DNA of 64,000 nucleotides from Malacoraja senta (taxonomy: Eukaryota): NCBI GenBank assembly GCA_038087875.1, contig CM075989.1, positions 6,884,001-6,948,000 on the forward strand, read 5' to 3'. Positions 7,998-47,678 of the stretch are shown here, one piece after another; within the stretch, counting starts at the first letter, position 1; each line of letters starts with the position of its first letter. The notes under the pieces are model-generated. The model did no database searches. It saw nothing but the letters and a program-made list of their open reading frames with translations, and was not told the origin of the DNA. The position numbers were made by a program, and so were the translations under genes.

Positions 7998-8784
7998 TAT
8001 AATCATCATAATCATACTTTATTAGCCAAGTGTGTTTTGCAACATACGAGGAATTTGATTTGCTGCACAGTCATCCCAATAAAAAGCAACAGTACACACA
8101 AAATACATTTTAACATAAACATCCACCACAGTGACTCCTCCACTTTCCTCACTATGATAGAAAGCGAAAAAAAGTTAAATCTCTTCTCTTCTTTGTTCTC
8201 CCATGGTCGGGGGCCTCGAGCCTTCCGTTGACGGGGCAATCTTGGCTCCCGTAGCCGGCGGCGTTCGGGCCCTCCGCATCGGGAGCGTTCAAGCTCCTGC
8301 ACCGGGGGTGGGGGGGGGAGGGATCTCAGCTCCCCCGCGCCGGGCGATCTGACCCCGGGTCGAGGCTGGTCGAAACCTTCTGTGTCATTTGGAGCTTCCC
8401 GACCTCAGCCTCTACCCGAGACGGCGAGCGACTCGATGGTGAAATCCGCAGGCCGTGGTTGGAGCGTCGATCCCAGGCAAGGGATCGGCTCCGATGGTAA
8501 GTCCACGGCCCCGTGGTGGGGCTCAAAGTCAGTCACGTACAAGGCCGCCAGCTCCATGATGTTAGGCCGCCGAGCGACCGGAGATATACGACCCGGAAAA
8601 CAATCGCATCTCCGGCAAGGTAAAGATTGAAAAAAAGTTTCCTCCTCCCCCCACCCCCCCCCCCCCACATAAAACAAACCAGAGAACATTAACGCAATCT
8701 TTTAAAACACACTGAAAATAATAAAGAAAAGACGAAAAGCCAGACTGACTGTTGGCGAGGCTGCCATCATCGGTGCCCCCTGGT
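7998..8784 (-). mobile_element. Unclassified GC-rich non-coding retroposon, apparently full length
   Basis: GGGGGCACCG head, conserved hairpins, AATAAA plus (TATGAT)n tail, flanked by a 39-bp direct repeat. Confidence 0.75.
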
Positions 8785-9704
8785 GTTTCTAGCTTTGCAT
8801 CTATCAATTAGTTACCTACACTTGCCACCTATTTATCAGCACTTGGTCCATAGGTTTCTATTTCTTGGTGATTCAAGTACTCATCTAGATATTTCTGACA
8901 TGTTGAGTGTATACCTGGCTCACCACACTTTCAGGCAGTGTGTCCCAGATTCCAGCCACCTTATGGGTGACAGATGTCCTCAGATCCCCTCTACACCACT
9001 TACTTTCTATTCCCTCCAGTTTAAGATACCTTGGCTGAGGGGGAAAAGTTTGCGGATATCTCCTCAACCTATGCCCTTCATAATTTTGTATCCCTCTTTC
9101 AGGTCCCTCCTCAACGCCCTTCGCTCCAAGGCAAACACTCTCGGTCTCTCTTGTCCCTCCTCATGTGAAAGGTTGCATCCCAAAGTTCATTCTGGTGAAA
9201 ATTCTCTGCACCTTCTCCAGTACAATAATTTCCTGTCTATGGTGTTGCAACCAGTACTGTGCACAGAACTACAACTATGGCATAACAAAGTGATGGTAAG
9301 TAGATTTGTGCAGGTACGTATTTGATGGCCGGCATTGACCTGGTGGGCTGAAGGGCCTGTCTTGCTGCCCAATGGTGCAATGGTGCTTTCATTGTTACAT
9401 GTGCGAAGTGCAAATTCTTTCCTTACAAACAGTCCAGTAGAGTATTGCCGTACCCAAGCACATCCGCGATTAGCAAGTGTACAGAAATAGTCCACTAATC
9501 CCACATGCAAGAAGCACCATGTTTTGGCGCCACTTTCAAAGTCCAGTCTGGTGATTATGAGCGTTACCCATTCCAGGCAAGCCCCCGTCTGCTGCGGCCA
9601 TTGCCTTCCTTGGATGGATCGACCAGTGAACCAAAATCCCTCTCCTCGCCCATCAACCTTTGTCCATCATGCAGCTGACCTCGAGGGCGCGGTAGGCCAG
9701 ACTT

Positions 9705-10125
9705 GGGTGCGGCATGGTGGTGCAGTGGTTGCACCTGCACCTGCGGTTCCCGGAGGTTTTTGTCAGTCTCCCTAATGGTCGAAAGTGGTTTCCGCTTCTT
9801 CTATGTTCCGGCGAAATAATCTCCGGGAACCGCACGGAAACCTTAGGTGGGGCGCAAAGTCTCCAGCGGTTTCCGTTCAGGTTTCCTAAGTGGGACAGGG
9901 GGGTGCTGTCTGTACCGAGTTTGTACGATCTCCCCGTGACCACGTGGGTTTTCTCCGAGATCTTCGGTTTCCTTCCACGTACAGGTTTGCAGGTTAATTG
10001 GCTTGGTTTAAGTGTAAATTATCCCTAGTGTGTGTAGGGTAGAGTTAATGTGCGGGGATCGCTGGTCGGCGCGGACTCGGTGGGCCGAAGGGCCTGTTTC
10101 TGCACGGTATCTCTAAACTAACCTA
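9705..10125 (+). mobile_element. V-SINE interrupted by a MITE right end (~9744-9901)
   Basis: SINE head at 9705 and body from ~9902. The intervening piece ends AAGTGGGACAGGG, like the Harbinger-type TIRs. Confidence 0.65.
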
Positions 10126-11059
10126 ACGATCGGTTCCCTTTTCCTCTCCTACCGGCCTCACTCTTCGCCCGTCACGTCCCTCGTCATCACCGGCTCCATC
10201 CTCCCGGCTTCTGGTCGTCGGGGGGCGAGCAGGGGCCTGTATGATGTCTCAATACTTTATGACGTACTTTATCAGCTTGTTTCTAATGAACTGAGTTTGT
10301 TGCTCCGGCATCTGGTGCGGGAAAGTGTGGATGGGGCAAAGTCACGTTATTATCTAAGGCAACACTCTGAGCAGGTTTATGCACGTACTCAAAAATAAAG
10401 TGGCAACGTGCAGTCTACAACAAGAATGGCATGTTCTGTCATAAATTATCAAAGGCAATGAATAACTGAGGGTGAGAAACTAAAACACAACAAGAGTAAA
10501 ATTAGATTCCGATCTGTTTGGAATTCAGGATTGTTGATGCGCATGAAAATGCCCATTTAAAACCTGCTTTCTCTGGGATACACGATTAACATTTTAAGTT
10601 GCAGAGCGAGGTTGTTCCATGTACAGAGATTAAGCTCGGTTGTTGCTGGGATTCCACTGCCCCACCCCCCCCCCCGCCCTGTGCTTGCTTGGACGACTTT
10701 ATCGTAAACATAAATGGGAATGTGGTGGATTTGAGGCCGAGGTTTGGTTGACCTTATCTCACCCCAATAACCCATCCTGGAAGGTTAACATAATAAATAA
10801 ATCGCATCAATAAATGGGTTATGTTGTACACCTAAGATAGATGCAAAATTCTATCTGAGGAAGGATCTTGACCCGAAACGTCACCCATTCCTTCTCTCCA
10901 GAGACGTCGCCTGTCCCGCTGAGTTAATCCAGCATTTTGTGTCTATCTTCGGATTAAACCAGCATCTGCAGTTCCTTCCTACACATTATATTATACAGCT
11001 ACTGTACACCTGTACCAAGTTCCTTGTTGAAGTAGGAGGTGTGTGTTTACACACATCTA

Positions 11060-11380
11060 TACCTTTTGTCTTCTCCCCTCTCCCATCAGGCAAAAGATAA
11101 GGAAGCATGAAAACGTACACCTCCAGATTCAGGGACAGTTTCTTCCCAGCTGTTCTCAGGCAACTGAATCATCCTACCACAACCAGAGAGCGGTACCGAA
11201 CTGCTATCCCTCATTGGTGACCCTCGGACTTGGTTGGACTTTGCTGGCTTTACCTTGCACTAAACGTCATTCCTCGATTGTAATCATTTATTGTCTTTCC
11301 GCTGACTGGATAGCACGTAACAAAAGCTTTTCACTGTACCTCGGTACATGTGACAATAACCCAAACGGAACTGAACTGCA
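11060..11380 (+). mobile_element. Rex1/Babar LINE 3' end
   Basis: SPLPSG..RFRDSFFP remnant, terminal hairpin TTTCACTGTACC..GGTACATGTGAC and short-repeat tail. Confidence 0.75.
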
Positions 11381-11710
11381 CTGTATATGCACCATAACCA
11401 ACCTCTCAAAGCACTTCATCACCACAGACATTATTGCCACCAGTCGATAGTCATTGAGACATGTCCCCTTGCTCTTTTTGGGCACCTATATTATTGATGC
11501 TATCTGAAAACAGGTGGGAACCTCAGACTTCAATAATGAGAGGCTGAAGATGTCCGCAAAAACTCCAGCCAGTTGGTCTGCACAAGTATTAAGAATACGA
11601 CCAGGTCCGGGCGTCATGTTGAAGTCCCCTGCTATGGAGGTAAAAGGTTTTGGGGTACGGTGACTGGTGTTAGTTGACCACGAGTGCAGCTCCTCTAGTG
11701 ATAGTTGGAT
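11380..11710 (-). mobile_element. Rex1/Babar internal fragment (APE GDFN motif joined to RT N-terminus)
   Basis: Minus strand reads IAGDFN, then [14 protein letters not shown]...[29 protein letters not shown]. Confidence 0.75.
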
Positions 11711-12059
11711 CTCCCTGGATCTTTCTTGGACCCGGCACCTTGACTCTCTTGATTATTGGCCAGAGATAAGTTGTTGTCATTACCGTTGGAGAAAATAAGG
11801 TTCCATGGGAAATGCAGGGATTAGCATGGCCTGTGCAGTGGACAACGTTACAAGTAGCCAGGGTGCAAGGAGACGTAACACTAACCAGGGGGTCTTGTTC
11901 TCTGTGTGAGACAGAATTCCAAAACTACTGTGGCCTCCACAATGACTGCACTGGCTCTTGCAGTGGGGTGAACTCGCATGATATGGATTATTTATAGTCA
12001 AGGACCTCAGTGCGAGAAGGTCGAATTCCAGGTGGGGGCACAGTCCCTCATCACGTGTC

Positions 12060-12363: not shown

Positions 12364-13782
12364 ATTTTCATATCTTTCAGGTAATTAGCACCCTAGCTGT
12401 TATTTGGACGAGCATGGTTGAAGGGGGGTGTCTTCTAAACGCATGCAAGCTCACTCACAGAGACCTTCAGAGCTTCTTCTCAGATATGGCTTCAAAACAC
12501 AGTCTTTTGATGAATAAATGATTTATTGTTGATAGAAAACAGTAAGATACATCCAAATTTCTTCTGACTCGTTACTCCAATCTTCTTCAAACTCCAGCTT
12601 ATTACTTTAAACATTAGAAAACTCCTCGTGTATCCGTAACACTGGCAAGATCTGGCATGTGGCCCGCAAGATCCCGCATGGTAGAAGGGTTAACCTTCCC
12701 CATCGTCTCTCCAAACTAATCTAAAAACTAAACTTCTGCGCCACCATCTTAGCTCCAAACACGCCCAGAATCACGTCATAAATCCCACCCACAATATAAC
12801 GGGCAGTCTAAAATTTAAAGGCACATGCCATCATCAATGACATGCAAAACAGGCCAAATGGCCACTACACCTCAGTCTTTGCACTCTGTGTGTGAGTGCA
12901 GTCCCTTGTTGTCTGTAGGTGGGTGGGGATGCACTGGTGGCCTCAGGATTTCTCCTACCACTCGTTCTTGGCCTCAAAAGAGATGTTGGTGGTCTTGGAC
13001 TTTACCGGCAGCTCAGTCTTCCTCCAAGTCCACAAAAGGGGATCTCACCTGCTAGGGAGGCACCCCCCCCCCCCTCCGCCCCCACCCCACCTTCTCTCCC
13101 TTCCTTTTTCTCACTTCTTTCTTCCTTTCTTTCTCTCCTGCTTCCACTCCCTCTCCTGTTCTTCTCTTCCTGTTTCCCTCTGGCTGGAGTTGCCGTGGTT
13201 TTTAAGGAATGACGGTGATGAGGTGCAGGTCGGCCATTCCAATAACCGCTACTTGGACACAGCTGTTGCTCCTCTGGCTGTGGCCGCGGCCCAGTCCGGA
13301 GCGGTGTCCAGGATTCCGGTGTTTTCCGGCAGCCAGGGGCAGTTTGCGGTGCGGAGGTCTGGCTTGTCCGGGCCTGTCTGCCGACGATGGGGATCAAAGC
13401 AGCATTCGAGGGAGAAGGTGCGATCACACTACCTGGAGGCTCCATTCATTCAAGAGAAGGCCAGGTGACCGGGGCAGGGCTTGTATTCCACCATAGACTA
13501 GGAGCCAAACACAGATAGGGGCCCTTTGTCCCATCTTCCCCATGCTGACCAAGAGGCCCCATCTATACTAGTCCCACTTCCCTGCGTTTGGCCCATATCC
13601 ATAGCTTTCCTACCCATCATATCCCTCTAAACTCTTCCTATCCAATCTGTAAGTTTAGGTTAGTTCAGTTTAGTTTATTGTCAAGTGAACCGAGGTACAG
13701 TGAAAAGCTTTGGTTGTGTGCTAACCTGCCAGCAGGATATTTGAAGAAGGGTCTTGACCTGGAACATCACCTATCCAAGGCT

Positions 13783-14107
13783 TAAACGGCTGCGGGACTT
13801 ATCATCGCCCGCCGGGGGCTTTAACATCGGAAGCCCCAGTCACCTTGACGCTGCAGTTGGACTGCTGGACCGCAGGAGAAGAACAAAGGGAAGAGATAAG
13901 ACTTTTACCTTCCATCACAGTGAGGAGGTGTTGGAGATTCACTGTGATGGATGTTTGTGTAAACTGTGTTAAGTGTGGGTCTTGGTTTTTTTTGTAATGT
14001 AAGACAGTAGAAAATGCAATTTCGTTCAAACCAAGCTGTTTGAATGACAATAAAAGGCATTCTATTCTATTCTATTCTATTCTATTCTATTCTATTCTAT
14101 TCTATTC
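13783..14107 (+). mobile_element. 5'-truncated GC-rich retroposon with (CTATT)n tail, inserted into a Penelope end
   Basis: Hairpin TCCATCACAGTG/CACTGTGATGGA, terminal hairpin, AATAAA, microsatellite tail. Penelope sequence flanks both sides. Confidence 0.7.
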
Positions 14108-14194
14108 CATGTTCTCCAGAGATGCTGATTGACTTTGTGTCCTTTCTTCATATCTGTCAGTTTTTATCCCACTCTCCCGACTCTTGTTCAACAT

Positions 14195-14331
14195 GAAGAT
14201 AGACACAAAATGCTGGAGTAACTCAGCGGGACAGGCAGCATCTCTGGAGAGAAGGAATGGGTGACGTTTCGGCTTGAGACCCTTCTTCAGACTCGAATGG
14301 GTGACGTTTTGGGTCGAGACCCTTCTTCAGT
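14195..14331 (-). mobile_element. Penelope-end fragment with two tandem hammerhead-type motifs
   Basis: Duplicated GTGACGTTTYGG..GAGACCCTTCTTCAG unit, flanked by TCTTGTTCRACAT (14182-14194, 14332-14344). Confidence 0.75.
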
Positions 14332-14699: not shown

Positions 14700-15140
14700 T
14701 GCAAAATTTACGTCTCGTGCCGCCTTGGCAAGACCACCAGCATAGTCAAGGATGTGTCGCACCCCGGCCACTCCCTCTTCTCCCCTCTCCCATCAGGCAA
14801 AAGGTATAGAAGTGTGAAAACACACACCTCCAGATTCAGGTACAGTTTATTCCCAGCTGTTATCAGGCATTTGAACCATCCTACCACAACCAGAGAGCCG
14901 TCCTGAACTACTATCTACCACATCGGGGACCTTCGGACTATCTTTGATCGGACTTTACTTGCTTTATCTTGCACTAAATGTTATTCTCTGATCATGTATC
15001 TAGTTTAGTTTAGAGATACAGCTGTATCTGTACACTGTGAATGACTCGATTGCAATCATGAATTGTCTTTCCGCTGATGGGTCAGAGTGCAACAAAAGCA
15101 TTTCACTGTACCTCGGCACACGTGACAATAAACTAAACTA
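14700..15140 (+). mobile_element. Rex1/Babar LINE 3' fragment
   Basis: SIVKDVSHPGHSLFSPLPSGKRYRSVKTHTSRFRYSLFPAVIRHLN plus 3' UTR. Confidence 0.85.
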
Positions 15141-15344
15141 GAAACTCAATACATTCTTTTATGTGAGACATTGAATAGATGGCACAGCGCCCACTTTGCT
15201 GGGCATAGTTTATTCCACAACACCATCTCTTGGAGGACCATGGGTATTGTGTCCAGTGCCCTGGCCAAGCTATGCCCCTAAAAATGCATCGCAAAAATAG
15301 ATGATCACGGCATTGCCTCATTGCACCCTTGTTGGAATTTGCCA

Positions 15345-15642: not shown

Positions 15643-17059
15643 GAAAAAACTCTCCTGCGTTATACCAAAACAAACTCAATGGTTGCCGAGGACATGGGGA
15701 GGTTGTGAAGGGCGAAGTTAAGACCATTTCCATTTCCCCCACCTGCTAAATTTAGAAAATTGAATACAATCTGGGAAAGATTCCGAATTTTTTTGAAAAT
15801 AAAAGTAATTAATTTTGCTTAGGAAAATTCTCCAAGCTGTTTGAACATTCCCATGATAATCCACAGTGAAACTCCTCTGGAGCAAGAGATACAAGGAGAA
15901 CGCTTGTTTCAAGAAATAATACATATGCTGGAATCCATGCGGATAATGAGTGTTGCACACAACATGACCCTATCCAATGTTATGGATTATCACTGACAAT
16001 CCCCGTGAAACTGCATGATACCCTCTCCATTCCTTTTAAACACAAGTGAGCAGAGAAGCAAGGCAGGCTCGTTTTCATCTATAAATTATAATACTGTCAT
16101 CTGATGCAAACCACAAGGAGTCAGATTTATGGTTTAATGCATGGATTGCCATGCTCTGTTGTGAAGCAATCAATTTAAACCCCTTCCTCCTCCAGGTCTT
16201 CTGTTTATCCTGCAGTTATGGACTCCAAGCAACTGTAGCAGTGAAACTGGTTCAACTTTTATTCAGTTCCATTCTGAAAGCCCTTCACCAATTCCCCCCT
16301 TTGTCGCCCCCCCCCTCTCTCTTGTTCTCCCCCCTCTCTTGTTTGCCTCCCCTTCTCTTGTGCCCCCCCTCTCTGTGCTATTGGTTCAGGGAAGTGGTTA
16401 TGCTGTCTATTCCCCTTTACATGTGCCATTTACATGCTCTCACAACCAGAGAGCAGGGCTGAACTACCGTCTATCTCTTTGGTGACCCTCGGACAATCCT
16501 TGATCGGACTTTGCTGGCTTTACCTTGCACTAAACGTGATGTGCTTGACGTGTATCTGTACACTGTAAATGGTTCGATTGTAATCATGTACTGTCTTTCC
16601 GCTGGCTGGATGGCACGCAACGAAAAGTTTTTCACTGTACACGTGACAATAAACTAAACTGAACTGAACTGTAGATAGACACAAAAAGCTGGAGTAACTC
16701 AGCGGGACAGGCAGCATCTCTGGAGAGAAGGAAAGGGTGACGTTTCGGGTCGAGACCCTTCTTCAAACTGAACTGTGTATGGTTGTGATCACGTGTGGAA
16801 GAAGCGGAAATGATTGTGTCTAATCAAATAACCCAAATCCCACACTCCCGACCACTCCCACCCTCCCCCCCCCAAATCTTTACCAAAAGCAGCAAAGGAA
16901 TTTTTACAATATTTGCAAGGGAAGATATATTCTAGATTTCATGTCTCATTGGGCAGCGGTAGAGCTGCTGCCTTACAGTGTCTTTGGAAAGAATTCTGTC
17001 CTTAATTTGTGTATTGGTCTTTATAATTTATTTTATTCCGATTATATGTTTCCTATTTG

Positions 17060-17690: not shown

Positions 17691-17691
17691 A

Positions 17692-18015
17692 TCCGTGGTA
17701 GTGGGAGTATTTTCTCAATCTGACTCGCTGGTGTCCCGAGCCGCTGAGAGGGAGCACCATCACCCGGCGAGAACGGCCTGGAACATCGGGCCTCCGTGAA
17801 GGCGACTGTGGAGGCCTCAAATAGGCCCGACTATGGGTGGACATGGGATGGGGACTGGACTTTGTGCCTTCCCCCACAGTGGGGGCCATTGTGGGGGGAT
17901 GGTTTTATGTTTTATGTTAAATTTCTTTAATGTTGTGTCTAATTTGTGCTGCATGGCAAGACAAATGTCACTACACCATTTGGTGTACGTGACAATAAAT
18001 GTCCTTTGTCCTTGT
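17692..18015 (+). mobile_element. 5'-truncated GC-rich retroposon
   Basis: Hairpin TCCCCCACAGTG/CATTGTGGGGGGA, terminal hairpin, AATAAA and (TGTCCT)n tail. Confidence 0.65.
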
Positions 18016-18867
18016 TGTCCACTTACCTGGTTATAGCCATTGTAGAAAGCTCTAAACTTGCATGTGAACTGCCATACTTGCTTTCCCTCTCTCTCTGTCC
18101 CTCCCCCACCCTCGTTCTCCGATTTGTTTCACACTCCTCCTGATAAATTTTACTGTTTGGTTGCCTCGTTGTCACCTTCCCCTCAGCCAACAATGAACCA
18201 TTCTACATTTCCTTCAACATTGTCTGCTTTGATCTGTTGTTTTCACACCTTACGTTGTCTTTCTACCTATCCATATTTCCAGTTTCCCTCTCCATTGATT
18301 CTCAGTCTGAAGAAGGGTCTCGACCCAAAATGTTACCCATCCCTTCTCTCCAGAGATTCTGCCTGTCCCACTGAGCTACTCCCTGTCCCACTGAATTACT
18401 CCAGCATTTTGTGTCTATTTATGATGTATTAGTGTCTAAGTTATAGACAGAGCTAAGCCATGACAATTGGGCCTGTGATAGAGAAGAGAAAATCTATATT
18501 ACTAAAAGTAAGATCTTGACCGCTTTTGACTCACTGCGATGTGATTTCCGAGAGAACGCTGCCACTTACGGCCGTCATCTTTGGCCACCTCGCTCAGAGC
18601 CCCCCTCCGCCGGACTGGACTGGAGGATTTTTCCAATGGATCAAAAATCTGAGATATATTAATGTTTTTTTTAATTTCGCCATTCTCTCTGCTGCCCCTG
18701 CTGGTGGGATGGGGGGGGGACTATAAAACCCAGAAGTGGTGTGCCTCACTCAGTCTCTGCAAGATGGAGGAAGCGAGAGGGTCACGTCTCTCTGAGCTCT
18801 GAATAACACTGAACACATGTCTACTCAACTGTGAGTGCCCTTAATGTGGTTTGAAAATGAAAATATG

Positions 18868-19070: not shown

Positions 19071-19452
19071 AACTTGACAACTTCCTGTTTGAACTGAATA
19101 TTGATTTTAGATAAAACGCAACCACTTATGGCTGTGATTTTTGGCCATCTTACTCAGTTCCTCGCCACTCATCAGGTGCAGAGGATTCTTCCCATCAATG
19201 AAAAATAAAAGTGTTTAAAAAAATGTTGAGAATCTCTCTCCTGTCAATCACGCCATGAAGGCCCCTTCCAGTTGGAGGAGGATTATAAAACCCGTAAGTG
19301 TGGGTGTGGCTCAGTCTCTGCAAGATGGGGGAGAGAGAGGTCACGACTCTGTCTGAGCTGTGAATCAACTAAACACACTGAATGTCCACTGAACTGTGAG
19401 TGTGGTGTTTATGTGGTTTTTGTGTGGTTTTATAGTGGTTTTATGGTTGTTT

Positions 19453-20400
19453 CACCCTGCTTGAAATGGTATGAAACTGCATTTGAATTTGGTGGCCTTG
19501 CACCCTGCTTGAAATGGCATGAAACAGCATTAGCATTTGGTGGCCTTGCACCCTGCTTGAATTAACATGAAACTGCACTTGAATTTGGTGGCCTTGCACC
19601 CTGCTTGAAGTGGCATGAAACTGCACGTGAATTTGGTGGCCTTGCACTCTGCTTGAAATGGCATGAAACTGCACTTGAACTTGGTGGCCTTGCACCCTGC
19701 TTGAAGTGGCATGAAACTGCAGTTGAATTTGGTGGGCCTTGCACCCTGCTTGAAATGGCATGAAAGTGCATTTGAATTTGGTGGCCTTGCACCCTGCTTG
19801 AAATGGTATGAAACTGCATTTGAATTTGGTGGCCTTGCACCCTGCTTGAAATGGCATGAAACAGCATTAGCATTTGGTGGCCTTGCACCCTGCTTGAATT
19901 AACATGAAACTGCACTTGAATTTGGTGGCCTTGCACCCTGCTTGAAGTGGCATGAAACTGCACGTGAATTTGGTGGCCTTGCACTCTGCTTGAAATGGCA
20001 TGAAACTGCACTTGAACTTGGTGGCCTTGCACCCTGCTTGAAGTGGCATGAAACTGCAGTTGAATTTGGTGGGCCTTGCACCCTGCTTGAAATGGCATGA
20101 AAGTGCATTTGAATTTGGTGGCCTTGCACCCTGCTTGAAATGGCAGGAAACTGCACTTGAGTTTGGTGGCCCTGCACCCTGCTTGAAGTGGTATGAAACT
20201 GCACTTGAATTCGGTGGCCTTGCAGCCTGCTTGAAGTGGTCGGAAACTGCACGAATTCAGTGGCCTTGCACCCTGCTTGAAGTGGTCGGAAACTGCACTT
20301 GAATTCGGTGGCCTTGCACCCTGCTTGAAGTGGTAGGAAACTGCACTTGAATTTGGTGGCCATGCACCCTGCTTGAAATGGTCGGAAACTGCATTTGAAT
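19453..20400. repeat. 48-bp minisatellite, ~20 copies, with a 337-bp higher-order duplication
   Basis: Unit CACCCTGCTTGAAATGGCATGAAACTGCACTTGAATTTGGTGGCCTTG. Identical ORFs at 19530 and 19867 are 337 bp apart. Confidence 0.95.
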
Positions 20401-20845
20401 TTCAAGCTCCTCCTTTATGTATACAAAGCCCTTAACGGGCTTGCCCCCACCTACATCCAAAATCTGCGAACCCACCATTCTACCTCCAGGTCCCTCAGGA
20501 CGGCCGACTTGGGGCTACTGACTATCCCGCGGCCCAGGCATAAGCTCAGGGGCGATCGCGCTTTTGCGGTTGCAGCACCTAGACTGTGGAACAGCATCCC
20601 TCTTCTCATCAGAACTGCCCCCTCCATCGACTCTTTTAAGTCTAGACTTTAAACTTATTTCTACTCACAAGCGTTTCTTGAGGCCCTCTGAGGGAGCGCT
20701 GTATGTATGTATTTATGTATGTATTGTTAGATCTATGTACCACTGTATGTAGCATGTTAGTACCTGCACTGATGTAAAGCACTTTGGTCATCGAGAGTTG
20801 TTTTTAAATGTGCTATAGAAATAAAATTGACTTGACTTGACTTGA
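20398..20845 (+). mobile_element. L2 LINE 3' fragment
   Basis: FKLLLYVYKALNGLAPTY...GDRAFAVAAPRLWNS; 3' TGTAAAGCACTTTG stem and (CTTGA)n tail. Confidence 0.9.
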
Positions 20846-21590: not shown

Positions 21591-22027
21591 GAGTGGTTGG
21601 GTGAACTTGGATTGTTTTCCCTGGAGGCTGAGGGGAAACCTGAGAGAAGTATAGAAAATTATGAAAGGCATGTGGGCAGCACGGCGGCTCAGCAGTAGAG
21701 TTGCTGCCTTACAGCGCCAGAGACCCTGGTTTGATCTTGATTACGGCCGCTGTCTGTACAGAATTTACAAGTTCTCCCTGTGACCGCGTGGGCTTTCTCC
21801 GGGTACTCCGGTTTCCTCCCACATCCCACATCTCTAAAGTCTATCTCACATCTCTAAAATCTGGATTGCACTGGCAGGGGTGGTGGTGGGAGCAGATGTG
21901 ATGGCACATGAAGATGGGGGGATATGGATCACATACAGGCAGAGGAGATGAGTTTAACCTGGCATCATGTTCGGCACAGACATTGTAAGCCGAAAGGCCC
22001 GTTCCTGGGCTGCGTTGTTCTACGTTC

Positions 22028-22865
22028 TAAGATAAGATACATTTATTGTCACATGTACCAATTGGTACAGTGAAATGTGTGGTCACCATACAGCCATACG
22101 AATAATAAAGAGCACAGAACACGATCGTTTTTAACACAGACATCCCCCCACACAGCGGGATCAAAGTTTCCCACTGTGAGGGAAGGCTCCAAAAATTCGG
22201 TCATCCTCCTCTGTTGTCCTCCCGTGGTCGGGGGGCTCCCGAACCCCCCGCAGTCACCGCAACGGGCGGCCCGATGTTCAGGCCCGCTCGCCGGGGTGAT
22301 GGAAGTCCGACGTCGGGACTGGAGGACCTCCTCAGCGGCTTGGCCACCTCCTACGAGAGTCCGCGGCTTCCGAAGTCCACAGACCGCGCTGGGCGGAGAT
22401 TCAACGCTGGTGGCCCTCGGCAAAGGGCCCCAGTACTCCGCGATGTTGAAGTCAGCGCCGGCCGCGCTGGAAGCTCTGCAGATCACAGCTCCGATGTTAA
22501 AGCAGCAGGCGCAACTCTCCGGAGCTTCCACGGCGATCCCAGGTAAGGCATTGCCCGCTCCGCGGTGGATCCAGTGATGCGCCGCCGCTGCTGAAGCTCT
22601 GGCCCGGTCCCCGGCAGGAAAGGCCGCTCCAATCCAGGTGGTAGGCCGCGAGGAGGGGGGGGCGAGGACACGACTCGGAGAATAGTCGCATCCCCGCCAA
22701 GAAGTGACTGTGAAACGGTCTCCCCCTTACCCTACCCCCCTCCCCCACATAGAAAAGTTAAAGAAACTAAAGAAACATACTTTTAAAACTAACTAAAAAT
22801 AAAAAAAGATAGCAAAACAAACAGACTGTAGGCAGAGGCTGCCTTCAGTGCGGCGCCCCTAGTGG
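22028..22865 (-). mobile_element. GC-rich retroposon, apparently full length
   Basis: Head CCACTAGGGGCGCCGCA, internal hairpins, Rex1-like terminal hairpin, AATAAA and (TATCT)n tail. Confidence 0.75.
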
Positions 22866-23742
22866 CAAAAGTTGTATGTTGTAATCTTAGGACATCCGAG
22901 GTAGCTTTGCAGTCAGTGAAATATCTTTGTTTAATATATTCCTTGAAATATATTTATCCTTTAAAGTTCTATTTCTGGTTCAGCACTGGGATGCTTCAAA
23001 GCATTACGTCCTTTGAGATAGATGCTGAGTCTTCCACAGCTTGACGAGTGATTGAGTGCTTTCTTTGGAGCAAACTGAATGATTCTTCACTGCGCATATT
23101 ATCAAATGGAAATGAGCAAAGACTGATCGCAGAGCATTGCAGTCCTGTCCCCATAAATACTGATGACTACACAGAGTAAGCAACCCTGGGCCCGTGATTA
23201 ATACCACCAGCCTTGACTCTGATGACTGTTCTTGACATAAGGCATGATTCTAAGTTATAATGACAGCTCTAATTACATTGATAAGATTAATAGGAACGTC
23301 CTCCAGTTATGCAAGTTAATAAAGCACTCATTACTGAAGCAACAAGGAGCAATTAACCCTTTGGAGAATTAGATTTGTAATGTACATTGCAAACAAAGAC
23401 ATATTAACTCTTTCGTCATTGGGACAAAGTGATCCATCTTCAAGCATCCGCGGAGGATGATTAAAGAACAGAATTACACTGTGGTCTGCCTTGAAATGAT
23501 TGGAATATTTTGCCAGGCAAGAATCTGCTGCAGCAAAGTGTATAATGGCATGAGTCGTTAACTTAGGCTTCTGCCCCTGCACTCCTTTGCCTGAGAGCTT
23601 GTTACATATCACATTGCTGAAAATGCAAGCGGGTGATGGTACAATGGAAAATATTGAGTGACCAGGACAGCTGGATGGTTCAGTGCATTCAGTACCTGAA
23701 TGCAGTGAAAGTCTTTCTTGCATTCAATTCATAACAGTCTTA

Positions 23743-28452: not shown

Positions 28453-29054
28453 TAAGACAAGATACAAGACAAGATACATTTATTTGTCACATGTACCACG
28501 TCGGGACTGGAGGACGTCCTCAGCGAGTCGGCCACCTCCTACCGGAGTCCGCGGCTCCCGAAGTCCACGGGCCGCGCTGGGCGGAGATTCAGCGCTGGCG
28601 GCCCTCAGCAAAGGGCCCCAGATCTCCACCATGTTGGTCAGCGCCGGCCGCGCTGGAAGCTCTCCAAACCACAGCTCCGCGATGTTGGAGCAGCGGCCCA
28701 GCATTCCGGAGCTCCAAACGGCGACCCAGGTTGGCATCGCCCGCTCCGCGGTGAATCCAGTGCTGCGCCGCCGCTGCTGCTGAAGCTCTGGTCCGGGTCC
28801 CCAGCAGGAAAGGCCGCTCCAATCCAGGTGGTAGGCCGCGAGGAGGGGGGCGAGGACGCGACTCGGAGAATAGTCGCGTCCCCGCCAGGAAGTGACTGGG
28901 AAACGGTTTCCCCCTTACCCTACCACCCTCCCCCACATAGAAAAACTAAAGAAACCTCCAACACAAACTTTAAAACTGACTAAAAATTTAAAAAAAGATT
29001 GAAAAACAGACAGGCTGTAGGCAGAGGCAGCCTTCAATGCGGCGCCCCTAGTGG
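28453..29054 (-). mobile_element. GC-rich retroposon, internally deleted relative of 22028-22865
   Basis: Same 5' head and body; lacks ~240 bp next to the 3' end. Confidence 0.8.
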
Positions 29055-31009
29055 TTTAGATATTCGTAGCTAAGCTAACATATTCTTAGTAGAGCTAAGA
29101 TAGTATAAGATTTTGTTTTATTAAGTTGGAAGATCACACTTTGTTTTACAGAGAAACAAGAAACTGCAGATGCTGGAATCTTGAGTAGAAAGGAATAGGA
29201 ATAGGATTAGGAAGACTTTATTGTGACTAAACACAGTGAGATTCTTTGCATGCATGCACAATGTATACAAATGGCAGCCACCTACAGCGCTGACAAAGTT
29301 ACAAAGCATCCGGCTCCCCCTTTTTGTCCCCCCTACCCCCACTAAAACATAAAGAGTTGGATGAACTCAGCGGGTCAGGCAGTATCCATGGAGGAAATGG
29401 ACAGACAATGTTTCAGGTCAGGCCTACTGAGTCCACACAGAACTAGTGTGAAGGGGTGATCGATAGTCAATGTTATCCCACTTAGGCATCCACTCCTTAT
29501 ACACTAGGGGCAATTTACAGAGGCCTATAAACCTGCGAGTCTTTGGGATGTGGGTGGAGACTGGAGCACCTGGAAGGAACCTATGCAGTCACAGGAAGAA
29601 TGGGAAAACCACACGCAGCTAGCACCTGAGGTCAGGATTGAACCTGGGACTCTGGAACTGTGAATCAGCAGCTCTACAAGCTGCACCTCCATGCCAGTAC
29701 ATTCTTTACTCAATCACTGGCCAGATTATCAAATCTCGTGCTCAGTGCATGAAGATTGTCTGATTTTGAGAGGTCCTGCCGGAGAGACAAGGGCAAGATC
29801 TAGGTTGATGTGGTACCTTGGGAGTGCCGCAGTGCCAGAGTCTGAATGAGATATTAACCGTCAGCTTTGTCTGCTGTCTGAAGGGAGTTTAGTTTAGAGA
29901 TACAGCGCGGAAACACGCCCTTCAGCCCACCGAGTCTGCACCGACCAGCGATCCCCGCACACTAACACTATCCTACACATTAGAGTCATAGAGTGATACA
30001 GTGTGTGGAAACAGGCCCTTCGACCCTACTATCCCACACCAGCCAACATGTCCCAGCTACACTAGCCCCACCTGCTAGGATTTGGTCCAAACCCTTCCAA
30101 ACTTGTCCTATCCATGTACCTGTCTAACCTTTACAATTTTACCAAGCCAATTAACCTATGAACCTGTAAATCTTTGGAGTGTGAGAGTAAACCGGAACAC
30201 CAGGGGAAAACCCACGCAGGTCACGGAGAGAACGTGCAAACTCCGCAGAGGCAGCACCCGTAGTCAGGATGGAACCCGGGTCTCTGGCGCTGCAAGGCAG
30301 CAGCTCTACCACTACAAAGTGTACGGTACAAATGCACAGTAGTATATGGAAGAGCAAGAGGGTTCTCCACGGTACGCTGACCAACATTTATCTCTCAACC
30401 AACCACGTAAAACATGTCACCTGTGGTGCATCTCTCGTGGTTTTCGGGAGCTCGCTGAGTAAGTTTCACTGGCTTTACTTCCACACTCAGCACTGGCTCT
30501 AAACAGCTAGTGACAAGCTGACATTGTGAAATCTTGGCCCGGATACAAATCCTTGCTATTCTTTAGCTTCGAAAGGCAGCACCTCCTGACTGGGAAAGGG
30601 AAAATACCATCTTCCACAAAGAAGCAGTGCAAGGTGATTCTCAAAGTATTTTTTGAAAGAAAGGGCTTTAAAGATTGATTGAAGCATTGACCAAGACTGG
30701 TGGATGTATCTAATAAAAGTAGGCTTCGTATTTTGGGCCACTCTCTATGATTTTTCATATTTAATAAAGGTGCACCAGTAAAATCGTAAGGATACATTAT
30801 TAATGGGATAAATAATGTTTCAAAAATTGATTTGTTTTTACTAAGCCTATTAATGTTGAAAGCTAAATGTACCTTAAATCCAAGAAAGACATCACTGAAA
30901 TCCCCAAACACAGTGAACAACTTGTAAAGCAATGCAATGCCAATATGATTTAGAGCAAAAATCGAACTGCTGGTGGAACTAATTGGGTCAAGCAGCATCG
31001 GTGGAGGTT

Positions 31010-31589: not shown

Positions 31590-32700
31590 AAAGGGGAGAT
31601 ACTGACAGAGAACCCAGAGGTGGACTAGGTGACCAGTTCCTACATCACCCACACTTGGTCTGCAATGGCCATCCTGACCTCCTGGTTGAATGCCACCTCA
31701 ACGGCCCTTTCCACTCCTAGACTCAGTTCTCAGTTCTCGGCCTTCTCCGCTTCTCGGCTAAACACAAACTAGAAGAAGACCACCTCATATTTTACAACTC
31801 AATGGTAGAAACAGTGACTTTTCCAGTTTCAGGTAACATTCTTTCTCTCTCCTGGTTCCCCTCCTCTTTGTCACCAAGTTTCTTTCCCACTCCTATTCAG
31901 TTCCACCTGCATAGCACCCAAGCACTGCACCTTCTGGTTTTCCTAACCCTACCCCCACCTGTCTCCCTCTGTCCGCCTGCCAGCCCTCCCGCTCTCACCC
32001 CTTCCCCTCTCACCCCTCCCCCCTCCCCCTCTCACCCCTCACCCTCACTCCTCCCACTCTCACCCCTCCCCCTCTCACCCCTCCCCCTCTCACCCCTCCC
32101 TCACTCACCCCTCCCCCTCTGACCCCTCCCTCACTCACCCCTCCCCCTCTCACCCCTCCCTCTCTCACCCCTCCCCCTCTCCCACCCTTCCATCTCACCC
32201 CTCCCTCTCTCACCCCTCCCCCTCTCACCCCTCCCCCTCTCACTCACCCCCTCTCTCACCCCCCCCCTCTCCCACCCTTCCATCTCACCCCTCTCCCTCT
32301 CACCCCTCCCGCTCTCACCCCTCCCCCTCACCCCTCACCCTCACTCCTCTCCCTCTCACCCCTCCCTCTCTCACCCCTCTCCCTCTCACCCCTCTCCCTC
32401 TCACCCCTCCCCCTCTCACCCCTCCCCCTCTCACCCCTCTCCCTCTCACCCCTCCCCCTCTCACCCCTCTCCCGCTCACCCCTCTCCCTCTCACCCCTCT
32501 CCCTCTCACCGCTCCCCCTCTCACCCTTCCATCTCACCCCTCTCCCTCTCACCCCTTCCCCTCTCACCCCTCCCTCTCTCACCCCTTCCCCTCTCACCTT
32601 TACACCCTCAGCTCTGAGGCTGGGTCACGACCCAATCGTTGATCATCTCTTTGCTTCCACAGTCGTTGCCTCATCCATTGAGTTCCTCTCCTAGTTGTTT
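31590..32700 (+). mobile_element. Old Penelope 3' part (decayed GIY-YIG region and pLTR) split by a microsatellite
   Basis: LGDQF..H / KLEEDHLIF-like remnant and a decayed hammerhead-type motif at ~32634. Confidence 0.6.
31990..32600. repeat. Pyrimidine-rich minisatellite (~15-bp CTCTCACCCCTCCCC unit)
   Basis: Directly visible. Confidence 0.95.
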
Positions 32701-40186: not shown

Positions 40187-40210
40187 GTGCAGATCTTTAG
40201 AGGTACAGCG

Positions 40211-40556
40211 GACGACAGATGGCGCAATGGGCTAAGTGTTCGGCTGGCAACCGGAAGGTAGCCGGTTCGAATCCCGCTTGGAGTGCATACTGTCGTTGTG
40301 TCCTTGGGCAAGACACTTCACCCACCTTTGCCTGCGTGTGAATGTGTGTGAATGTGTGTGAGTGATTGGTGGTGGTCGGAGGGGCCGTAGGCGCAGATTA
40401 GCAGCCACGCTTCCGTCAGTCTGCCCCAGGGCAGCTGTGGCTACAGAAGTAGCTCACCACCACCGAGTGTGACTGAGGAGTGAATGAATAATGCGATGTA
40501 AAGCGCCTTGAGTATTAGAAAGGCGCTATATAAATCCCATCCATTATTATTATTAT
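40211..40556 (+). mobile_element. tRNA-derived CORE-type SINE with an L2-like 3' end
   Basis: A-box ~40220, B-box GGTTCGAATCC 40264-40274, CORE-like GTGTCCTTGGGCAAGACACT, TGTAAAGCGCCTTG..AAAGGCGCTATATAAAT and (ATT)n. Confidence 0.8.
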
Positions 40557-42749: not shown

Positions 42750-43318
42750 GACCATCAGGCACTCTCCTGGTCTGTCAGGCATCCCTGTCCTCCTGTATGC
42801 CTTGGAGGTAGGGCCTGCTGACAGCGGACAGCTCGACGTGCTTGAGGAACTACCAGCAGTGCTGACCCTGCAAAATTCCTGGACATATACAGAAGAGATG
42901 TATCAGCAGAGCCATCTCCATCATCAAAGACCCTACCACTCATGGCATCACATATTCTCCATCCTGCCATCTGGGAAGAGGTACCGGAGCATTAGGTGCA
43001 AACCAGCAGGATGCTCCTCAGCTTCTTCCCGCAGGTTATAAGACTGATAAACGGACTTTGTCCCCTGCCAAAGTATCGTGCACCAACCACCAACCTGGAC
43101 ACACTGCAGCAGAGCCACTGTCGTGCCGCTGCCGATCGGAACGCCTGTTGATGTTTAGTAGAGTAGAGTGTTAATTTGTTCATGATATATGTATTTTACT
43201 TCTATTTATTTTTTACTGCACACTGAAATGGACACTGGTGAGGAACGTTTTTTTGTTTCCTCTGGGTATGCGAATACTCAGGAATGACAATAAAGATATA
43301 CAATACAATACAATAACT
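42750..43318 (+). mobile_element. RTE remnant (~42750-42895) followed by a Rex1/Babar 3' end (~42900-43318)
   Basis: IPVLLYA.E-type RTE motif, then IFSILPSGKRYRSI and a (ATACA)n tail. Confidence 0.65.
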
Positions 43319-43334
43319 CCCCAATTCTGATCTG

Positions 43335-43637
43335 TGGTACGGTGGTGCAGCGGTAGAGTTGCTGCCTGACAGCGCCAGAGACCCGGGTTCGATCCTGGCT
43401 ACCGGTGGTGTTTGTACGGAGTTTGTACGTCCTCCCTGTGACCATGTGAGTTTTCTCCAGGAGTTCCAGTTTCCTCCCACACTCCCAAGACGTTCAGGAT
43501 TGTAGGTTAATTAGCTTGGTGTAATTGTAAATTGCCCCATGTGTGTGTAGGGTAGTGTTATTGTGCGGGGACCGCTGGTCAGTGTGGACCCGGTGGGCCG
43601 AAGGGCCTGTTTCCGCGCTGTATCTCTAAACTAAACT
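43335..43637 (+). mobile_element. HE1-like V-SINE
   Basis: Head, V-domain and tail. Confidence 0.85.
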
Positions 43638-44856
43638 TGTCACAAGAGACTATCCGAGGCACTTTGCCTCAGGTTATAGCATAAGATTACCAGGAGGATA
43701 AAAAAAACAGTTTAAAGGCTGTCTTAAAGCTGTCTTGAGGCATCTGCGTTGACCTGTGACCATGAGTGCTTAAAGTGGAGAAACCACACCCAGGAAAGCT
43801 CTGAGAAGCCTCTGATCGGAGCACACAATTGGCAACCGGGAATAGCATCACCAGAACTATCCCCTAGCTGTCCTAGCTAGTACCTCCTGACTGAGGAGCA
43901 GGCCACAGTCCTCAAGTTAACCTCACCATTCAGTAGGATCACGGCTGATCCATCCCAGACATCTTTTCCTCTTCCGTGCCTGTTCCTTTTATCTTTCCTT
44001 GTTTGTCCCCGCAGCTCTTGATTCTCTGACTTTTCAATAAGGTGGGACCAATGATCACCCCATAAACTAGCACTGTCCCACACACGCTAGGACAATTTCC
44101 GATTTTTACCGAAGCCAATTAACCTACAATTAATCTACAAACCTGTACATCTTTGGAGTGTGGGAGGAGCCGAAGCACCCGGAGAAAACCCACACGGTCG
44201 CAGGGAGAAAGTGCGGACAGCACCTGCAGTCAGGATGGAACGCGGTCTCTGCCGCTGTAAGGCTGCAATGCTACCGTTGCACCACTGACCCCCCCCCACA
44301 CGGAGTAGGGTAGGGTTCCAGCATCAGATATGCCCACAAAGTCAGCTTGCAATCCCTCAGAAGGCTGTCGCTGACTGCATGAGCGATGAAAGGGATATGC
44401 CAGAACGAGACCAAGACCAACAAAAACCAGACTGGCCAAACTTGATGACAAGTAATGACATTAGTGTTTGAATGAAATCGTTTGAATGTAAATCAGAATT
44501 GATAAATCCAATTTGAAACTCCCTAATAGTTCTCAGTACAGTCTCAACACGAATCAGAACTAAATTGCCCACTTATTTATCATTATTCTGTAATTTTGAG
44601 TTTATGAACGTGACTGAAGCCATTTGGGAGGAACAGTCGATTTTACTTTTCTTCAGACTGACAAAAAGGGACTCGACCCTGAAACATCATCTATCCCTTC
44701 TCTCCAGAGATGCTACCCGTCCCGCTGAGTTACTCCAGCATTTGGTCTATCTCCGGTTTAAACCAGCATCTGCAGTTCCTTCCAGCACAGGAGATGTTAC
44801 TCAGGCATCCACTGTAAATCTCAACGTCCTCCCAGGTCAGTAGAGAGAAAGAGTAA

Positions 44857-45265
44857 AGGGCCTGTCCCACTTTCCCGAGTTATTCACGAATTCTCCCGAG
44901 TTATTCACGATTCTCCCGAGTTATTCACGAATTCTCCGAGTTATTCACGATTCTCCCGAGTTTCAAACACGCAGAATGTTCGTAACGAGGCCGTAGGAGT
45001 CCGTGGATATATCGTAGCGGCTCGTTATGCCAGCCGTAGGTACTCGGGCATCGGGTAAGTCGGGACGTTTTTTCCAGCCTGATCAAAAATGTCCAAGGGT
45101 AAAACAATAGTCCCGAGTACCTATGGCTGGAGTAACGAGCCACTATGATATATCCTACGGCCTCCTACGGACTCGTTACCAACATTCTGTGATTTTGAAA
45201 ACTCGGAGAATTCGTGAATAACTCGGGAGAATTCGTGAATAACTCGGGAAAGTGGGACAGGCCCT
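44857..45265. mobile_element. Harbinger-type MITE with subterminal tandem repeats
   Basis: TIR AGGGCCTGTCCCACTTTCCCGAG, ~20-bp TTCTCCCGAGTTATTCACGA arrays at both ends, flanks TAA and TAG. Confidence 0.85.
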
Positions 45266-45818
45266 TAGATTTGCCTTTTGGTATTCACTGAGTCGCGGTG
45301 CTAAATCATGCTTTTTATGTTCATACAGTGGATCATTTCAGTCTTGGCAACAAAGATGACCATCAATCTAGACCAATTGCTAACATTTTCTTCAGAAAAA
45401 GTAGGGTTTCAACTTTCAAGGGACTTTGTGTAAAAGAGGGTAGCAAGGCACTTTCAAGGTAGCAGTGTGCACATGGCAGGGCAAAGCAAAACACATCGTA
45501 GTAAGTTGCTCATCGATGTACTTGAAATTCACACAAAGAGTAGGAGGAGCAAATCAAGGTCATTTTACCCTCAATCCTCTCTTACCAGTCTTCTCCACCA
45601 TCCTGTGTCTTATAACACCTTTCCCACCCCGGTCTTCTTATCCACGCTCCCAATTGGGCAGAAGGTACAGAAGCTTGAACCAGACTCTTCTTCCCCTCTC
45701 TTATTAAGCTTCTGAACAGTCCTTCCATAAGACTGATTCTAAAAACCTATCTATTACGGGCATTGGAGCCAGTCTTTGGATGTGTTGTGCTACAATATAG
45801 AGAGATCTATAATCTGCA

Positions 45819-46014
45819 CAAAAAGCTGGAGTAACTCGACGGGACAGGCACCATCTCTGGAGAGAAGGAATGGGTGACTTCAGACTGAAGAAGGATCTCG
45901 ACCTGAAACGTCACCCATTCCTTCTCTCCAGAGATGCTACGTGTCCCTGCTGAGATACTCCGGCTTTTTGTGTCTATCTTCGGTTTAAACCAGCATCTGC
46001 AGTTCCTTCCTACA
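45819..46014. mobile_element. Fold-back Penelope-end insert
   Basis: Inverted arms and a perfect 12-bp TSD CTATAATCTGCA. Confidence 0.85.
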
Positions 46015-46257
46015 CTATAATCTGCATTCTCTACCCTCCCATTTGATCAACATTCTTGACCTTGAGTTTGACTTGATTTGCTTTATGTATAGTATTACCT
46101 GACTTGATTGGATAGCATGCAAAACAAAGCTTTTCACTCACTGCACCTCGTTACACTTGACAATATAATAAACATAAACCTAGATTATAGAAAATGTGGG
46201 CAGGAGTAAGCCAGTCAGGGTTTACCACTGAAAATGACCATGGCTGATCATTCCCAT

Positions 46258-47678
46258 TTATCATCGGCGGTCATTCGAAATGAGTATGACTGTCCTCTTT
46301 TGGGAGGACGCCTGTGCGTGACTTGTTTAACGTGGGGAGACTGGTGCACAGACAGCCACCACACGGTTCTTGACAGATCTTGACAGGTGGGGGCGCTGCA
46401 AGCCGGCGCCCTGTCAGCAGCTTGTCTGTTTTTTTCTACTTTTTTGTATTTTTTTTGTATGTTTTAAAGTATGTTTTTAATGTTTCTTTGTGTGTCTTGT
46501 GTGGGGGGTGGTGTGGGGGGGTAAGGGGGAAACCGTTTTGGTCGCCTCCTCCATGGAGAGGCGACTTTTTCCAGGTCGCCTCCCCCGTGGCCTAACAGCA
46601 AGGATCGGTGCGGCCTTTCCCGGAGACGCGCCTGGGGCTTCAGCGGCGGGCGCAGCGTGGACTCTCGGCGTGGAGCAGGCGAGACCTCACTGGGGGTCGC
46701 CGGAGGGGAGCGCTCCGTTTTGCTGGCCCGTGGCAGCCTGAAGCCGTGGTCTGCAGAGATCCAGCTGGCGCGGCGTCCACAGCCTGGGATCCCTCGTGGG
46801 GGACCCGGGCGAAGAAGAGCTCCAACTGCCGGCCCGCGGCCAACTTCTACCGCGGGCGCGGCGGAGACTTACCATCAGGTGCGGGGTCCCTCGCCGGGGA
46901 CCCCTGGATGGGAGCTTCGACTTCGACCGCCGGCCCTGCGGTCTGCGGTGCTTCTGGCTGCGGCGCGGCGGGAACTTTAAATCTTCGACCGCCGGCCTGC
47001 GGCCTACACCAAATTGAAGCCGCGGTCTACGGTGGGGAAGAGCCTACTCTGGACTTACCTGGACTTTTACCTGTCTGCACATCTGGACGCCCGCAGCGAC
47101 GACTGCGGAGGATTGAGGTCCCGACCACGGGGGAAAATGGAGGAGGATTGGCCAAATTGTGTGCCTTCCACCACAGTGATGAATGCTGTGGTGGATGTTT
47201 GTGTTAAATTGTTATTGTGTATTGTGTGTTCTTTCTCATTGTACCGCTGCTGGCAAATTCATTTCACTTGCACTTTATGTGCAATGTGACGAATAAAACC
47301 GTATTGTATCGTATTGTATTGTATCTGGGTCAGGATCCAGTGGCATGGAGTCCAAGACGACCGGAGACCCTTTTCTGCTACAGCCTTCATCCGCCTTCCC
47401 AGCCGTTGTGATGCTCCACTAAGGTCAGCCATTGTCCTCCGCCTGTTCCACCGTTGAGATTGGAACAGGCGGGGGATGATGGCTGACTTTAGTGGAGCAT
47501 CTTTTCTCTCTACTGACCTGGGAGACCTTGAGATTGGTTGGATAGCTCTTTGACAGGGACCTCCCCCTGGACCTTACCGCCATGGGTGACCCTACCAGGA
47601 GCATGGCTCCAGACGGCATCGCTCTCAGGATCTCAGGACCACACAAGCTTCTCCACCACGACAAGGTGACAATCCACA
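46258..47678 (-). mobile_element. Short RTE-derived non-autonomous element interrupted by a GC-rich retroposon
   Basis: Minus strand starts CACCTTGTCGTGGTGGAG...CCTGGTAGGGTCACCCA (RTE 5' UTR-like). It is ~480 bp once the insert is removed. Confidence 0.6.
46383..47323 (+). mobile_element. GC-rich retroposon, apparently full length (divergent subfamily)
   Basis: GGGGGCGCTG head, conserved hairpins, AATAAA and (GTATT)n tail. Confidence 0.75.

Follow-up and report, generated by a model that had tools for sequence, protein, structure and literature searches.

What kind of element reaches high copy number while encoding no protein, and on whose enzyme it relies, are questions raised by a 64,000-nucleotide (nt) stretch of the skate Malacoraja senta genome (assembly GCA_038087875.1, contig CM075989.1, positions 6,884,001 to 6,948,000; hereafter the window). 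A preliminary description reported six copies of an unclassified GC-rich family there, sharing an order of modules: a head, a T-rich spacer, a G-run, a hairpin (stem A), a GGCCTAMCA..GGA..GCGGCCTT motif (the GGCC motif), a GC-rich body, a second stem (stem B), and a terminal hairpin followed by AATAAA and a short-repeat tail. It took the family for a structured non-coding RNA mobilized by the reverse transcriptase (RT) of Rex1/Babar long interspersed elements (LINEs).

Here, we confirm the family as a non-autonomous retroposon of the non-LTR type (LTR, long terminal repeat), an interspersed high-copy repeat with discrete ends, and we find that both ends resemble those of Rex1. We consider it probable that this is an old, diversified, high-copy family of Rex1/Babar-derived retroposons without an open reading frame (ORF), transcribed by RNA polymerase II (Pol II) and mobilized in trans. 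The best explanation of its architecture is a Rex1 5' terminus of ~80 nt, a family-specific structured core, and a Rex1 3' terminus of ~40 nt. Copy-level analysis is based on the six copies in the 64-kb window together with contig summaries, and papers cited by PMC number are represented by excerpts.

Six copies form one high-copy family

The six copies (c1 to c6 in window order; Table 1) are mutually homologous in blastn, with E values from 6e-5 to 9e-166, and an nhmmer profile run on the window recovers the same six with only weak extra matches, which lie at Rex-type 3' ends. Together they make up 6% of the window. Copies c1, c4 and c6 are full-length (787–941 nt), c5 is internally deleted, and c2 and c3 are truncated at the 5' end and retain only the 3' third. 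The proposed module order holds in four copies; c2 and c3 are without the 5' modules, and c5 is without stem B. The heads, the stem A loops and the three quoted stem B pairs are as first written.

All six copies end in tails, two of the six are 5'-truncated, and one has a clear target-site duplication: the direct repeats around c1 end exactly at the boundaries that the preliminary description had given. An imperfect duplication of 7–8 nt accompanies c2, which starts at ~13778 and was inserted within a palindromic repeat, and c3 and c4 are located at the microsatellite tails of short interspersed elements (SINEs). Copy c5 matches c4 at 87% identity across 570 nt and then skips to the final 35 nt. 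The deletion junction falls inside the loop of the terminal hairpin, with one base common to both sides, and has removed the left arm of that hairpin along with stem B.

Table 1. Family copies, their landmarks and Rex1-type LINE pieces in the window
Feature	Position	Strand	Basis or remark
c1, full-length, 787 nt, subfamily 1	7998..8784	-	blastn/nhmmer homology, landmarks
c1 target-site duplication, left copy, 39 nt	7959..7997		92% identical to right copy
c1 target-site duplication, right copy	8785..8823		first base may be the element's own
c1 head and T-rich tract, Rex1 5'-terminus-like	8705..8784	-	PetMar_Rex1-1 match at 8756-8777; reads GAPMMAAS...F-stop
c1 stem A	8578..8615	-	GCGAY core at nt 178
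c1 GGCC motif	8541..8568	-	motif scan
c1 stem B	8113..8169	-	pairing analysis
c2, 5'-truncated; stem B 13911-13951 (13/13 pairs), terminal hairpin, (ATTCT)n tail	13778..14109	+	
c3, 5'-truncated, behind SINE tail	17692..18022	+	homology demonstrated only from 17757
c4, full-length, 839 nt, high-copy subfamily	22028..22866	-	sharp 5' end ~22866
c4 stem A, 15 bp, 8-nt loop	22661..22698	-	pairing analysis
c4 GGCC motif	22620..22647	-	motif scan
c4 stem B	22134..22191	-	pairing analysis
c4 terminal hairpin of Rex1 type, with AATAAA and (ATCTT)n tail	22028..22076	-	end comparison
c5, c4 subfamily (87%), ~240 nt deleted	28453..29055	-	junction ~28498
c6, full-length, ~941 nt, subfamily 3, (GTATT)n tail	46383..47324	+	homology, landmarks
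c6 stem A	~46551-46590	+	
c6 GGCC motif	46589-46617	+	
c6 stem B	47159-47204	+	
c6 terminal hairpin	47263-47297	+	
Rex1-type LINE 3' end; possible partner lineage for c4/c5	11068..11379	+	also 14706-15145, 16433-16672, 13662-13733
Rex1-type LINE 3' part with PF09004 domain	62719..63556	-	sister copy 52142-52640; another lineage 42875-43320

Words from the c4 region are present at 0.33–0.51 in fifteen public sequencing runs carrying eight organism labels. We aligned the contigs of four runs to positions 21960–22960 at 80% likeness. In three of them (X1, X2 and X6), summed contig depth, which is not equivalent to copy number, is ~8e3–1e6 over 22028–22877 and 18–58 outside, a step of 3–4 orders of magnitude at the family 5' end. 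The profile is that of a unit repeated many times over, with a 5' boundary that is sharp near 22866. Of the aligned records in the three DNA-like runs, only 1–3% continue into unlike sequence. Run X16 is probably DNA. The best-supported joint, among 15 of 134 viewed, has a depth of 228, and there is therefore no dominant deleted or spliced form. One joint in run X6, from 22865 to 22046, connects tail to head, as in a tandem pair of family copies.

A pattern scan yielded no further copies in metagenomes, viral contigs or prokaryote genomes; four viral matches to a short motif are unrelated to the family. In the little skate, a sense-oriented copy of c4/c5 type is the source of residues 100–178 of XP_055520024.1, a THAP domain-containing protein 3-like isoform X2 (tblastn E 1e-13). 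The C-terminal end of this protein is thus an exonized family copy, apparently entered just past the pyrimidine tract of the GGCC motif. A full HMMER search with the c4 frame gave two matches, this copy and a repetitive protein that we regard as chance.

The 3' end is of Rex1 type

The window contains five Rex-type ORF ends in addition to shorter copies of the untranslated region (UTR). The likeness between the terminal hairpin and Rex-type ends that had been remarked on is borne out at 11327–11359 and 52589–52622. A single predicted hairpin is common to three family copies (c3, c4 and c6) and four Rex ends (11359, 15131, 52622 and 62735): a 4-nt loop, 5–6 base pairs, a single bulged base, 4 base pairs, and then AATAA. 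Its pairs carry double changes at 4 of 10 positions across three family and four Rex ends, a score reached in 1 of 500 shuffles and inflated by the relatedness of the sequences. This hairpin, common to Rex1, is the only one in the family with significant covariation. The likeness to Rex is confined to the last 35–40 nt. Within the terminal 40 nt, c4 agrees with the Rex end at 11359 at 34 positions and with c2, c3 and c6 at 30 at most (c1 and c5 were left out of these counts).

Close relatives of the LINE proteins in this repeat-rich window are named from Leucoraja erinacea and Rhinoraja longicauda (78–87%), which makes the window skate-like. The Rex1 label of the window pieces rests on a chain of sequence likenesses: the piece bearing PF09004 is 97% identical over 96 residues to database protein P0003, which leads to single-ORF proteins of ~950–1000 residues with an apurinic/apyrimidinic endonuclease (APE), RT and PF09004; Rex1 consensus rows of PMC13343379 likewise encode the LANVQSL motif of these proteins. 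A literature search pairing DUF1891 with Rex found no paper.

A Rex-type RT fragment at 11381–11834 (-) lies tail-to-end against the Rex 3' end at 11068–11379, and Penelope-like RT and GIY-YIG pieces at 61871–63927 (-) are split by the Rex-type LINE at 62719–63556. An ORF-less piece at 29200–29345 (-) combines a Rex-type 3' end with a T-rich stretch and a G-run, includes a 16-nt stretch like the reverse complement of the family head, and possibly represents a second Rex1-dependent family.

The 5' head resembles a Rex1 terminus

We compared the family with the Rex1 consensus sequences in the supplement of PMC13343379, each represented by its opening 400 nt. The 5' end of PetMar_Rex1-1 is identical to nt 8–29 of c1 at 21 of 22 positions, a match that is unique in the window and absent from 100 shuffles. 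The match lies in register at both 5' ends, and a T-tract follows in each. By eye, HypSab_Rex1-4, LeuEri_Rex1-16 and ThaAma_Rex1-9 have a similar head and T-tract. AGATGG or AAATGG heads open 12 of 19 little-skate Rex1 rows, and in most of these a T-rich tract comes next (PMC13343379, excerpted). The Rex1-like 5' homology is established by count in c1 alone; for c4 the fit is to a looser pattern.

The c1 head translates as GAPMMAAS followed by a hydrophobic run and a stop. An MAPxMAA start is found in 3 of 36 Rex N-termini, and 37 of 65 full-length Rex-type ORFs have an early hydrophobic, signal-peptide-like segment before the endonuclease. We discarded the hydrophobic peptide as independent evidence, as any T-rich frame scores alike. 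At the sequence level, the head together with the T-rich spacer resembles the opening ~80 nt of a Rex1 in which the first ATG has turned into GGG. A CTCF site at the head was also rejected, with one mismatch in c1 and no fit in c4, c5 or c6.

The family has no ORF and no Pol III promoter

That the family has no conserved ORF agrees with our searches. None of five element frames has a Pfam match, no Rex-type protein in a set of 131 proteins matches the six copies in tblastn, and the longest ATG-initiated ORFs (21–99 residues per copy) are not shared between copies. A longer protein relative of the c5 frame was not found, and an ORF1-only element like HAL1 was rejected for want of a conserved ORF1.

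An A box is absent from all six copies, as first reported; the claim of no B box needs qualifying, as B-box-like matches occur in two of the six, where they are stray. ARAGORN finds no tRNA, and Rfam has no family at the gathering threshold, its generic hairpin matches lying far below and none being plausible at E values up to 10. T-runs of up to 7–8 nt occur at nt 47–115 in all four heads, and runs of such length terminate transcription by RNA polymerase III (Pol III). A SINE of tRNA, 5S or 7SL type with a Pol III promoter was rejected on these grounds. Given the missing A box, and T-tracts at which Pol III would terminate, a Pol II transcript is indicated.

A structured core contains a slowly diverging module

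Between the two Rex1-like ends, the core keeps fixed positions. In all four heads the G-run starts at nt 116–119 and the GCGAY of stem A at nt 178–179. A CCCGAC word lies 52–55 nt upstream of stem B in all three full-length copies. The GGCC motif, as had been described, recurs four times, against none in 100 shuffles. The module formed by the G-run, stem A and the GGCC motif is 68–70% alike among subfamilies, compared with 53–57% elsewhere, and c4 and c5 are 95% identical within it and 85% elsewhere (p=0.001, alignment-dependent). This module thus diverges more slowly than the rest of the element, as does stem B. The body has a GC content of 0.63–0.68 and an observed-to-expected CpG ratio of 0.9–1.0, compared with 0.52 for the window.

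The stems had been presented as covarying. The hairpins stand, whereas covariation is suggestive without reaching significance in stem A (double changes in 2 of 15 pairs; 107 of 500 shuffles reach the score) and stem B (2 of 13 pairs; 32 of 500). Stem A arms pair best with the arm of their own subfamily, and two majority variants in the sequencing runs turn G-U pairs of c4 into standard pairs. Swapping the arms of stem B revealed no consistent preference, with cognate arms best in only 2 of 5 cases. On the sense strand, G-U cells outnumber A-C cells 16 to 1 across stems A and B (the cells are not independent), an excess to be expected where base-pairing has a role in the sense RNA. Folded whole, copies outperform shuffles, with z scores of -5.7, -3.5 and -4.4 (20 shuffles each). 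The loop of stem A has an invariant TCC and the next loop an invariant GGA.

An intron starting from GGTAAG at nt 136–138 was considered and rejected; the word is absent in c1, and no such joint appears among the 15 of 134 shown. CTTACC words of the body (c1 nt 284, c4 nt 320, c6 nt 486 and 672) form strong antisense splice donors; PriPec_Rex1-1 and LeuEri_Rex1-15 have words like them in their 5' repeats.

Origin and proposed mechanism

The copies are homologous and numerous, with discrete, Rex1-like ends and tails; among them we observe 5' truncation, an internal deletion and a single long target-site duplication. From these observations we outline a mechanism. Transcription by Pol II would begin from the Rex1-derived 5' end and the CpG-rich body. 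The Rex1 ORF protein would then bind the bulged 3' hairpin in trans, and the microsatellite tail would prime reverse transcription at the target, a step modelled on stringent LINE/SINE pairs (PMC3747384, excerpted). Incomplete reverse transcription could give rise to c2 and c3. In the case of c5, reverse transcription could have jumped templates at the loop of the hairpin, or the sequence could have been lost afterwards. The constrained G-run/stem A/GGCC module and stem B most likely act mainly as RNA elements, lending the untranslated transcript stability or an advantage in competing for Rex1 protein; alternatively, they may serve as a promoter at the DNA level. Subfamilies may follow different Rex1 lineages through tail exchange or adaptation.

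Several observations weigh against this account. The match at the head is only 22 nt long, involves an element of a lamprey and not of a skate, and emerged after about a dozen motifs had been tried. The HypSab_Rex1-4 motif has no match in the window at 3 mismatches. A protein profile of the Rex N-terminus scores the heads no higher than background, which leaves the DNA match and where it lies as the basis for the claim about the head. All four heads have an altered Rex1 AAGATGGCG start motif, and the promoter is therefore putative. Covariation of stems A and B falls short of significance with 4–5 copies, and template switching at the DNA level can perfect inverted repeats. The tail-exchange step is based on a single subfamily, and no parent Rex1 with both ends was found among the published 5' 400 nt and the window LINEs.

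An extension of the preferred account, to which we assign a much smaller chance, holds that the family is a long-lived batoid superfamily of Pol II-transcribed non-coding retroposons whose core module is a dedicated device for Rex1-protein capture or RNA protection. The device would include stem A and the internal-loop hairpin of the GGCC motif, possibly joined by a TCC/GGA loop-loop contact; kept through switches of Rex1 partner lineage, it would be a functional counterpart of the Alu domain without a small-RNA gene.

We think it unlikely that the family arose simply by internal deletion from an autonomous Rex1 lineage so far unseen, the core then being a long structured LINE UTR constrained for the needs of the LINE. 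Such an origin gains from both family ends being Rex1-like, from another ORF-less Rex-type end in the window, near whose 3' end lie a T-rich stretch and a G-run, and from the GC-rich repetitive 5' regions of some chondrichthyan Rex1 (ScyCan_Rex1-3 and LeuEri_Rex1-15), whose short words resemble those of the body; the contigs are also too short to exclude a rare parent. The core, however, speaks against it. By eye, its module is in none of 41 shark and ray Rex1 5' ends (19 LeuEri, 14 HypSab, 5 PriPec and 3 ScyCan). G-run words have no match in the published Rex1 5' ends, where other words give only scattered short matches, and a stem B model finds in the window only its five training copies and nothing in the Rex 3' UTRs. 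The lack of matches to Rex-type proteins and the few records that continue into unlike sequence point the same way, as do most skate Rex1 consensus sequences, which at 3.1–3.5 kb have little space for an 800-nt UTR. The preliminary description had itself raised the UTR of an autonomous LINE as an identity that would overturn it; this holds in part, through the head and spacer; the middle 600–750 nt are unmatched.

Less likely again is that a host transcript of independent origin, either a non-coding RNA or the product of a CpG island, picked up a Rex1 tail, giving a SINE whose GC-rich head is of obscure origin and has converged on a common promoter motif. In favour of this reading, the core resembles no LINE examined and folds better than shuffles, and birds have GC-rich-headed SINEs of unknown origin (PMC7245038, excerpted). 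Convergence would nevertheless have to account for a 21/22 match in register at both 5' ends with a T-tract after each, and Rfam offers no plausible host family. The structured non-coding RNA first proposed survives as a non-tRNA, ORF-less element with hairpins and a Rex1/Babar-type 3' end that Rex1 RT would mobilize; its reading as an independent RNA with only a Rex1 3' end is not supported, given that its head and its T-rich spacer both match the 5' termini of Rex1.

Finally, it is very improbable that the 5' module is an HDV-like or twister-like self-cleaving ribozyme freeing the element from read-through transcripts: despite its fixed spacing and strongest conservation, the potential TCC/GGA loop-loop contact and the 5' ribozymes of several LINE clades (PMC5786205, excerpted), the module lies 120–240 nt inside an element whose copies start at the head, an HDV-like descriptor finds 0–1 cores per copy at differing places (0.45–0.8 in shuffles), the Rfam scans contain no ribozyme family, and, of the twister consensus, a UAA internal loop is present but P4/L4 have no room.

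Other repeats in the window

Additional repeats were observed around the family. At 40212–40350 (+), an intact tRNA-Ala-like SINE head is followed by a CORE-like CCTTGGGCAAG word, the whole inserted at the end of another SINE. At 2925–4464, direct repeats of 206 nt, 99% identical, flank a 319-residue gag-like frame with a zinc-knuckle pattern, no Pfam match and no pol, which we read from sequence as a short, young LTR-type element. L1/Tx1-like ORF2 pieces at 50521–52031 (-), with zf-RVT below the cut-off, have a 91% identical 3' copy at 1–713. Long minisatellite-like arrays occupy 31947–32610 (pyrimidine-rich) and 19441–20414 (~31-nt unit).

Relation to known retroposons

In the excerpted text of Kojima 2018 (PMC5786205), only RTE, Ingi, Vingi and R2 are listed as sources of ORF-less bipartite elements. 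Bov-A (from BovB/RTE), RIME (Ingi), NARTc (L1Tc) and the Vingi and R2 derivatives resemble the skate family in combining LINE 5' and 3' ends without an ORF, in lacking a small-RNA head and, probably, in being mobilized in trans. The skate family differs in deriving from Rex1, a clade outside the four listed, and in having a 600–750-nt structured core of no known parent and subfamilies only ~55% alike. With the Rex1/Babar LINEs of rays and skates it shares a GC head followed by a T-rich tract, the bulged 3' hairpin, AATAAA, an oligonucleotide-repeat tail and frequent 5' truncation (excerpts of PMC13343379 and PMC6274825), whereas it lacks their APE/RT ORF and first ATG and adds the G-run, stem A, the GGCC motif and stem B.

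Two families of bird GC-rich-headed SINEs (PMC7245038, excerpted) likewise have a non-tRNA GC-rich 5' part and a uniform chimeric structure, but these are RTE-dependent; the partner of the skate family is probably Rex1, and its head itself is apparently LINE-derived. GymnSINE and ManaSINE are bipartite RTE SINEs in the excerpt of PMC5786205. SINE2-5_NV of Nematostella, the sole Rex1-partnered SINE in the table of PMC3747384, also has a Rex1-type 3' tail, but it has a tRNA head, whereas the skate family lacks an A box and its T-tracts would bring Pol III to a halt. HE1/HER1, SacSINE1 and SINEX-1_CM, non-autonomous retroposons of sharks and rays in the same excerpt, have tRNA heads and CR1-group tails (CR1 for HER1); compared by description only, their anatomy differs.

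Rex1, which is without ORF1, makes up 6.6% of the little-skate genome and reaches its highest load in rays, according to the excerpted text of PMC13343379, in which neither 'non-autonomous' nor 'nonautonomous' occurs. The literature that we searched, which lay outside Repbase, Dfam, subscription journals and preprint supplements, has no description of the skate family. The ORF-less bipartite arrangement is so far known for other retrotransposon lineages and not for Rex1 in those papers.

If our account is correct, Rex1 would join the short list of LINE clades that yield ORF-less bipartite parasites, and such an element would have diversified into subfamilies ~55% alike while its RNA architecture kept a fixed spacing. 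Its many natural variants would provide a ready system for asking what the Rex1 protein recognizes and how an untranslated Pol II RNA competes for a LINE protein. At 6% of a single window, the family may be a sizeable, mislabelled fraction of skate genomes, and it has already donated an exon to a little-skate gene model.

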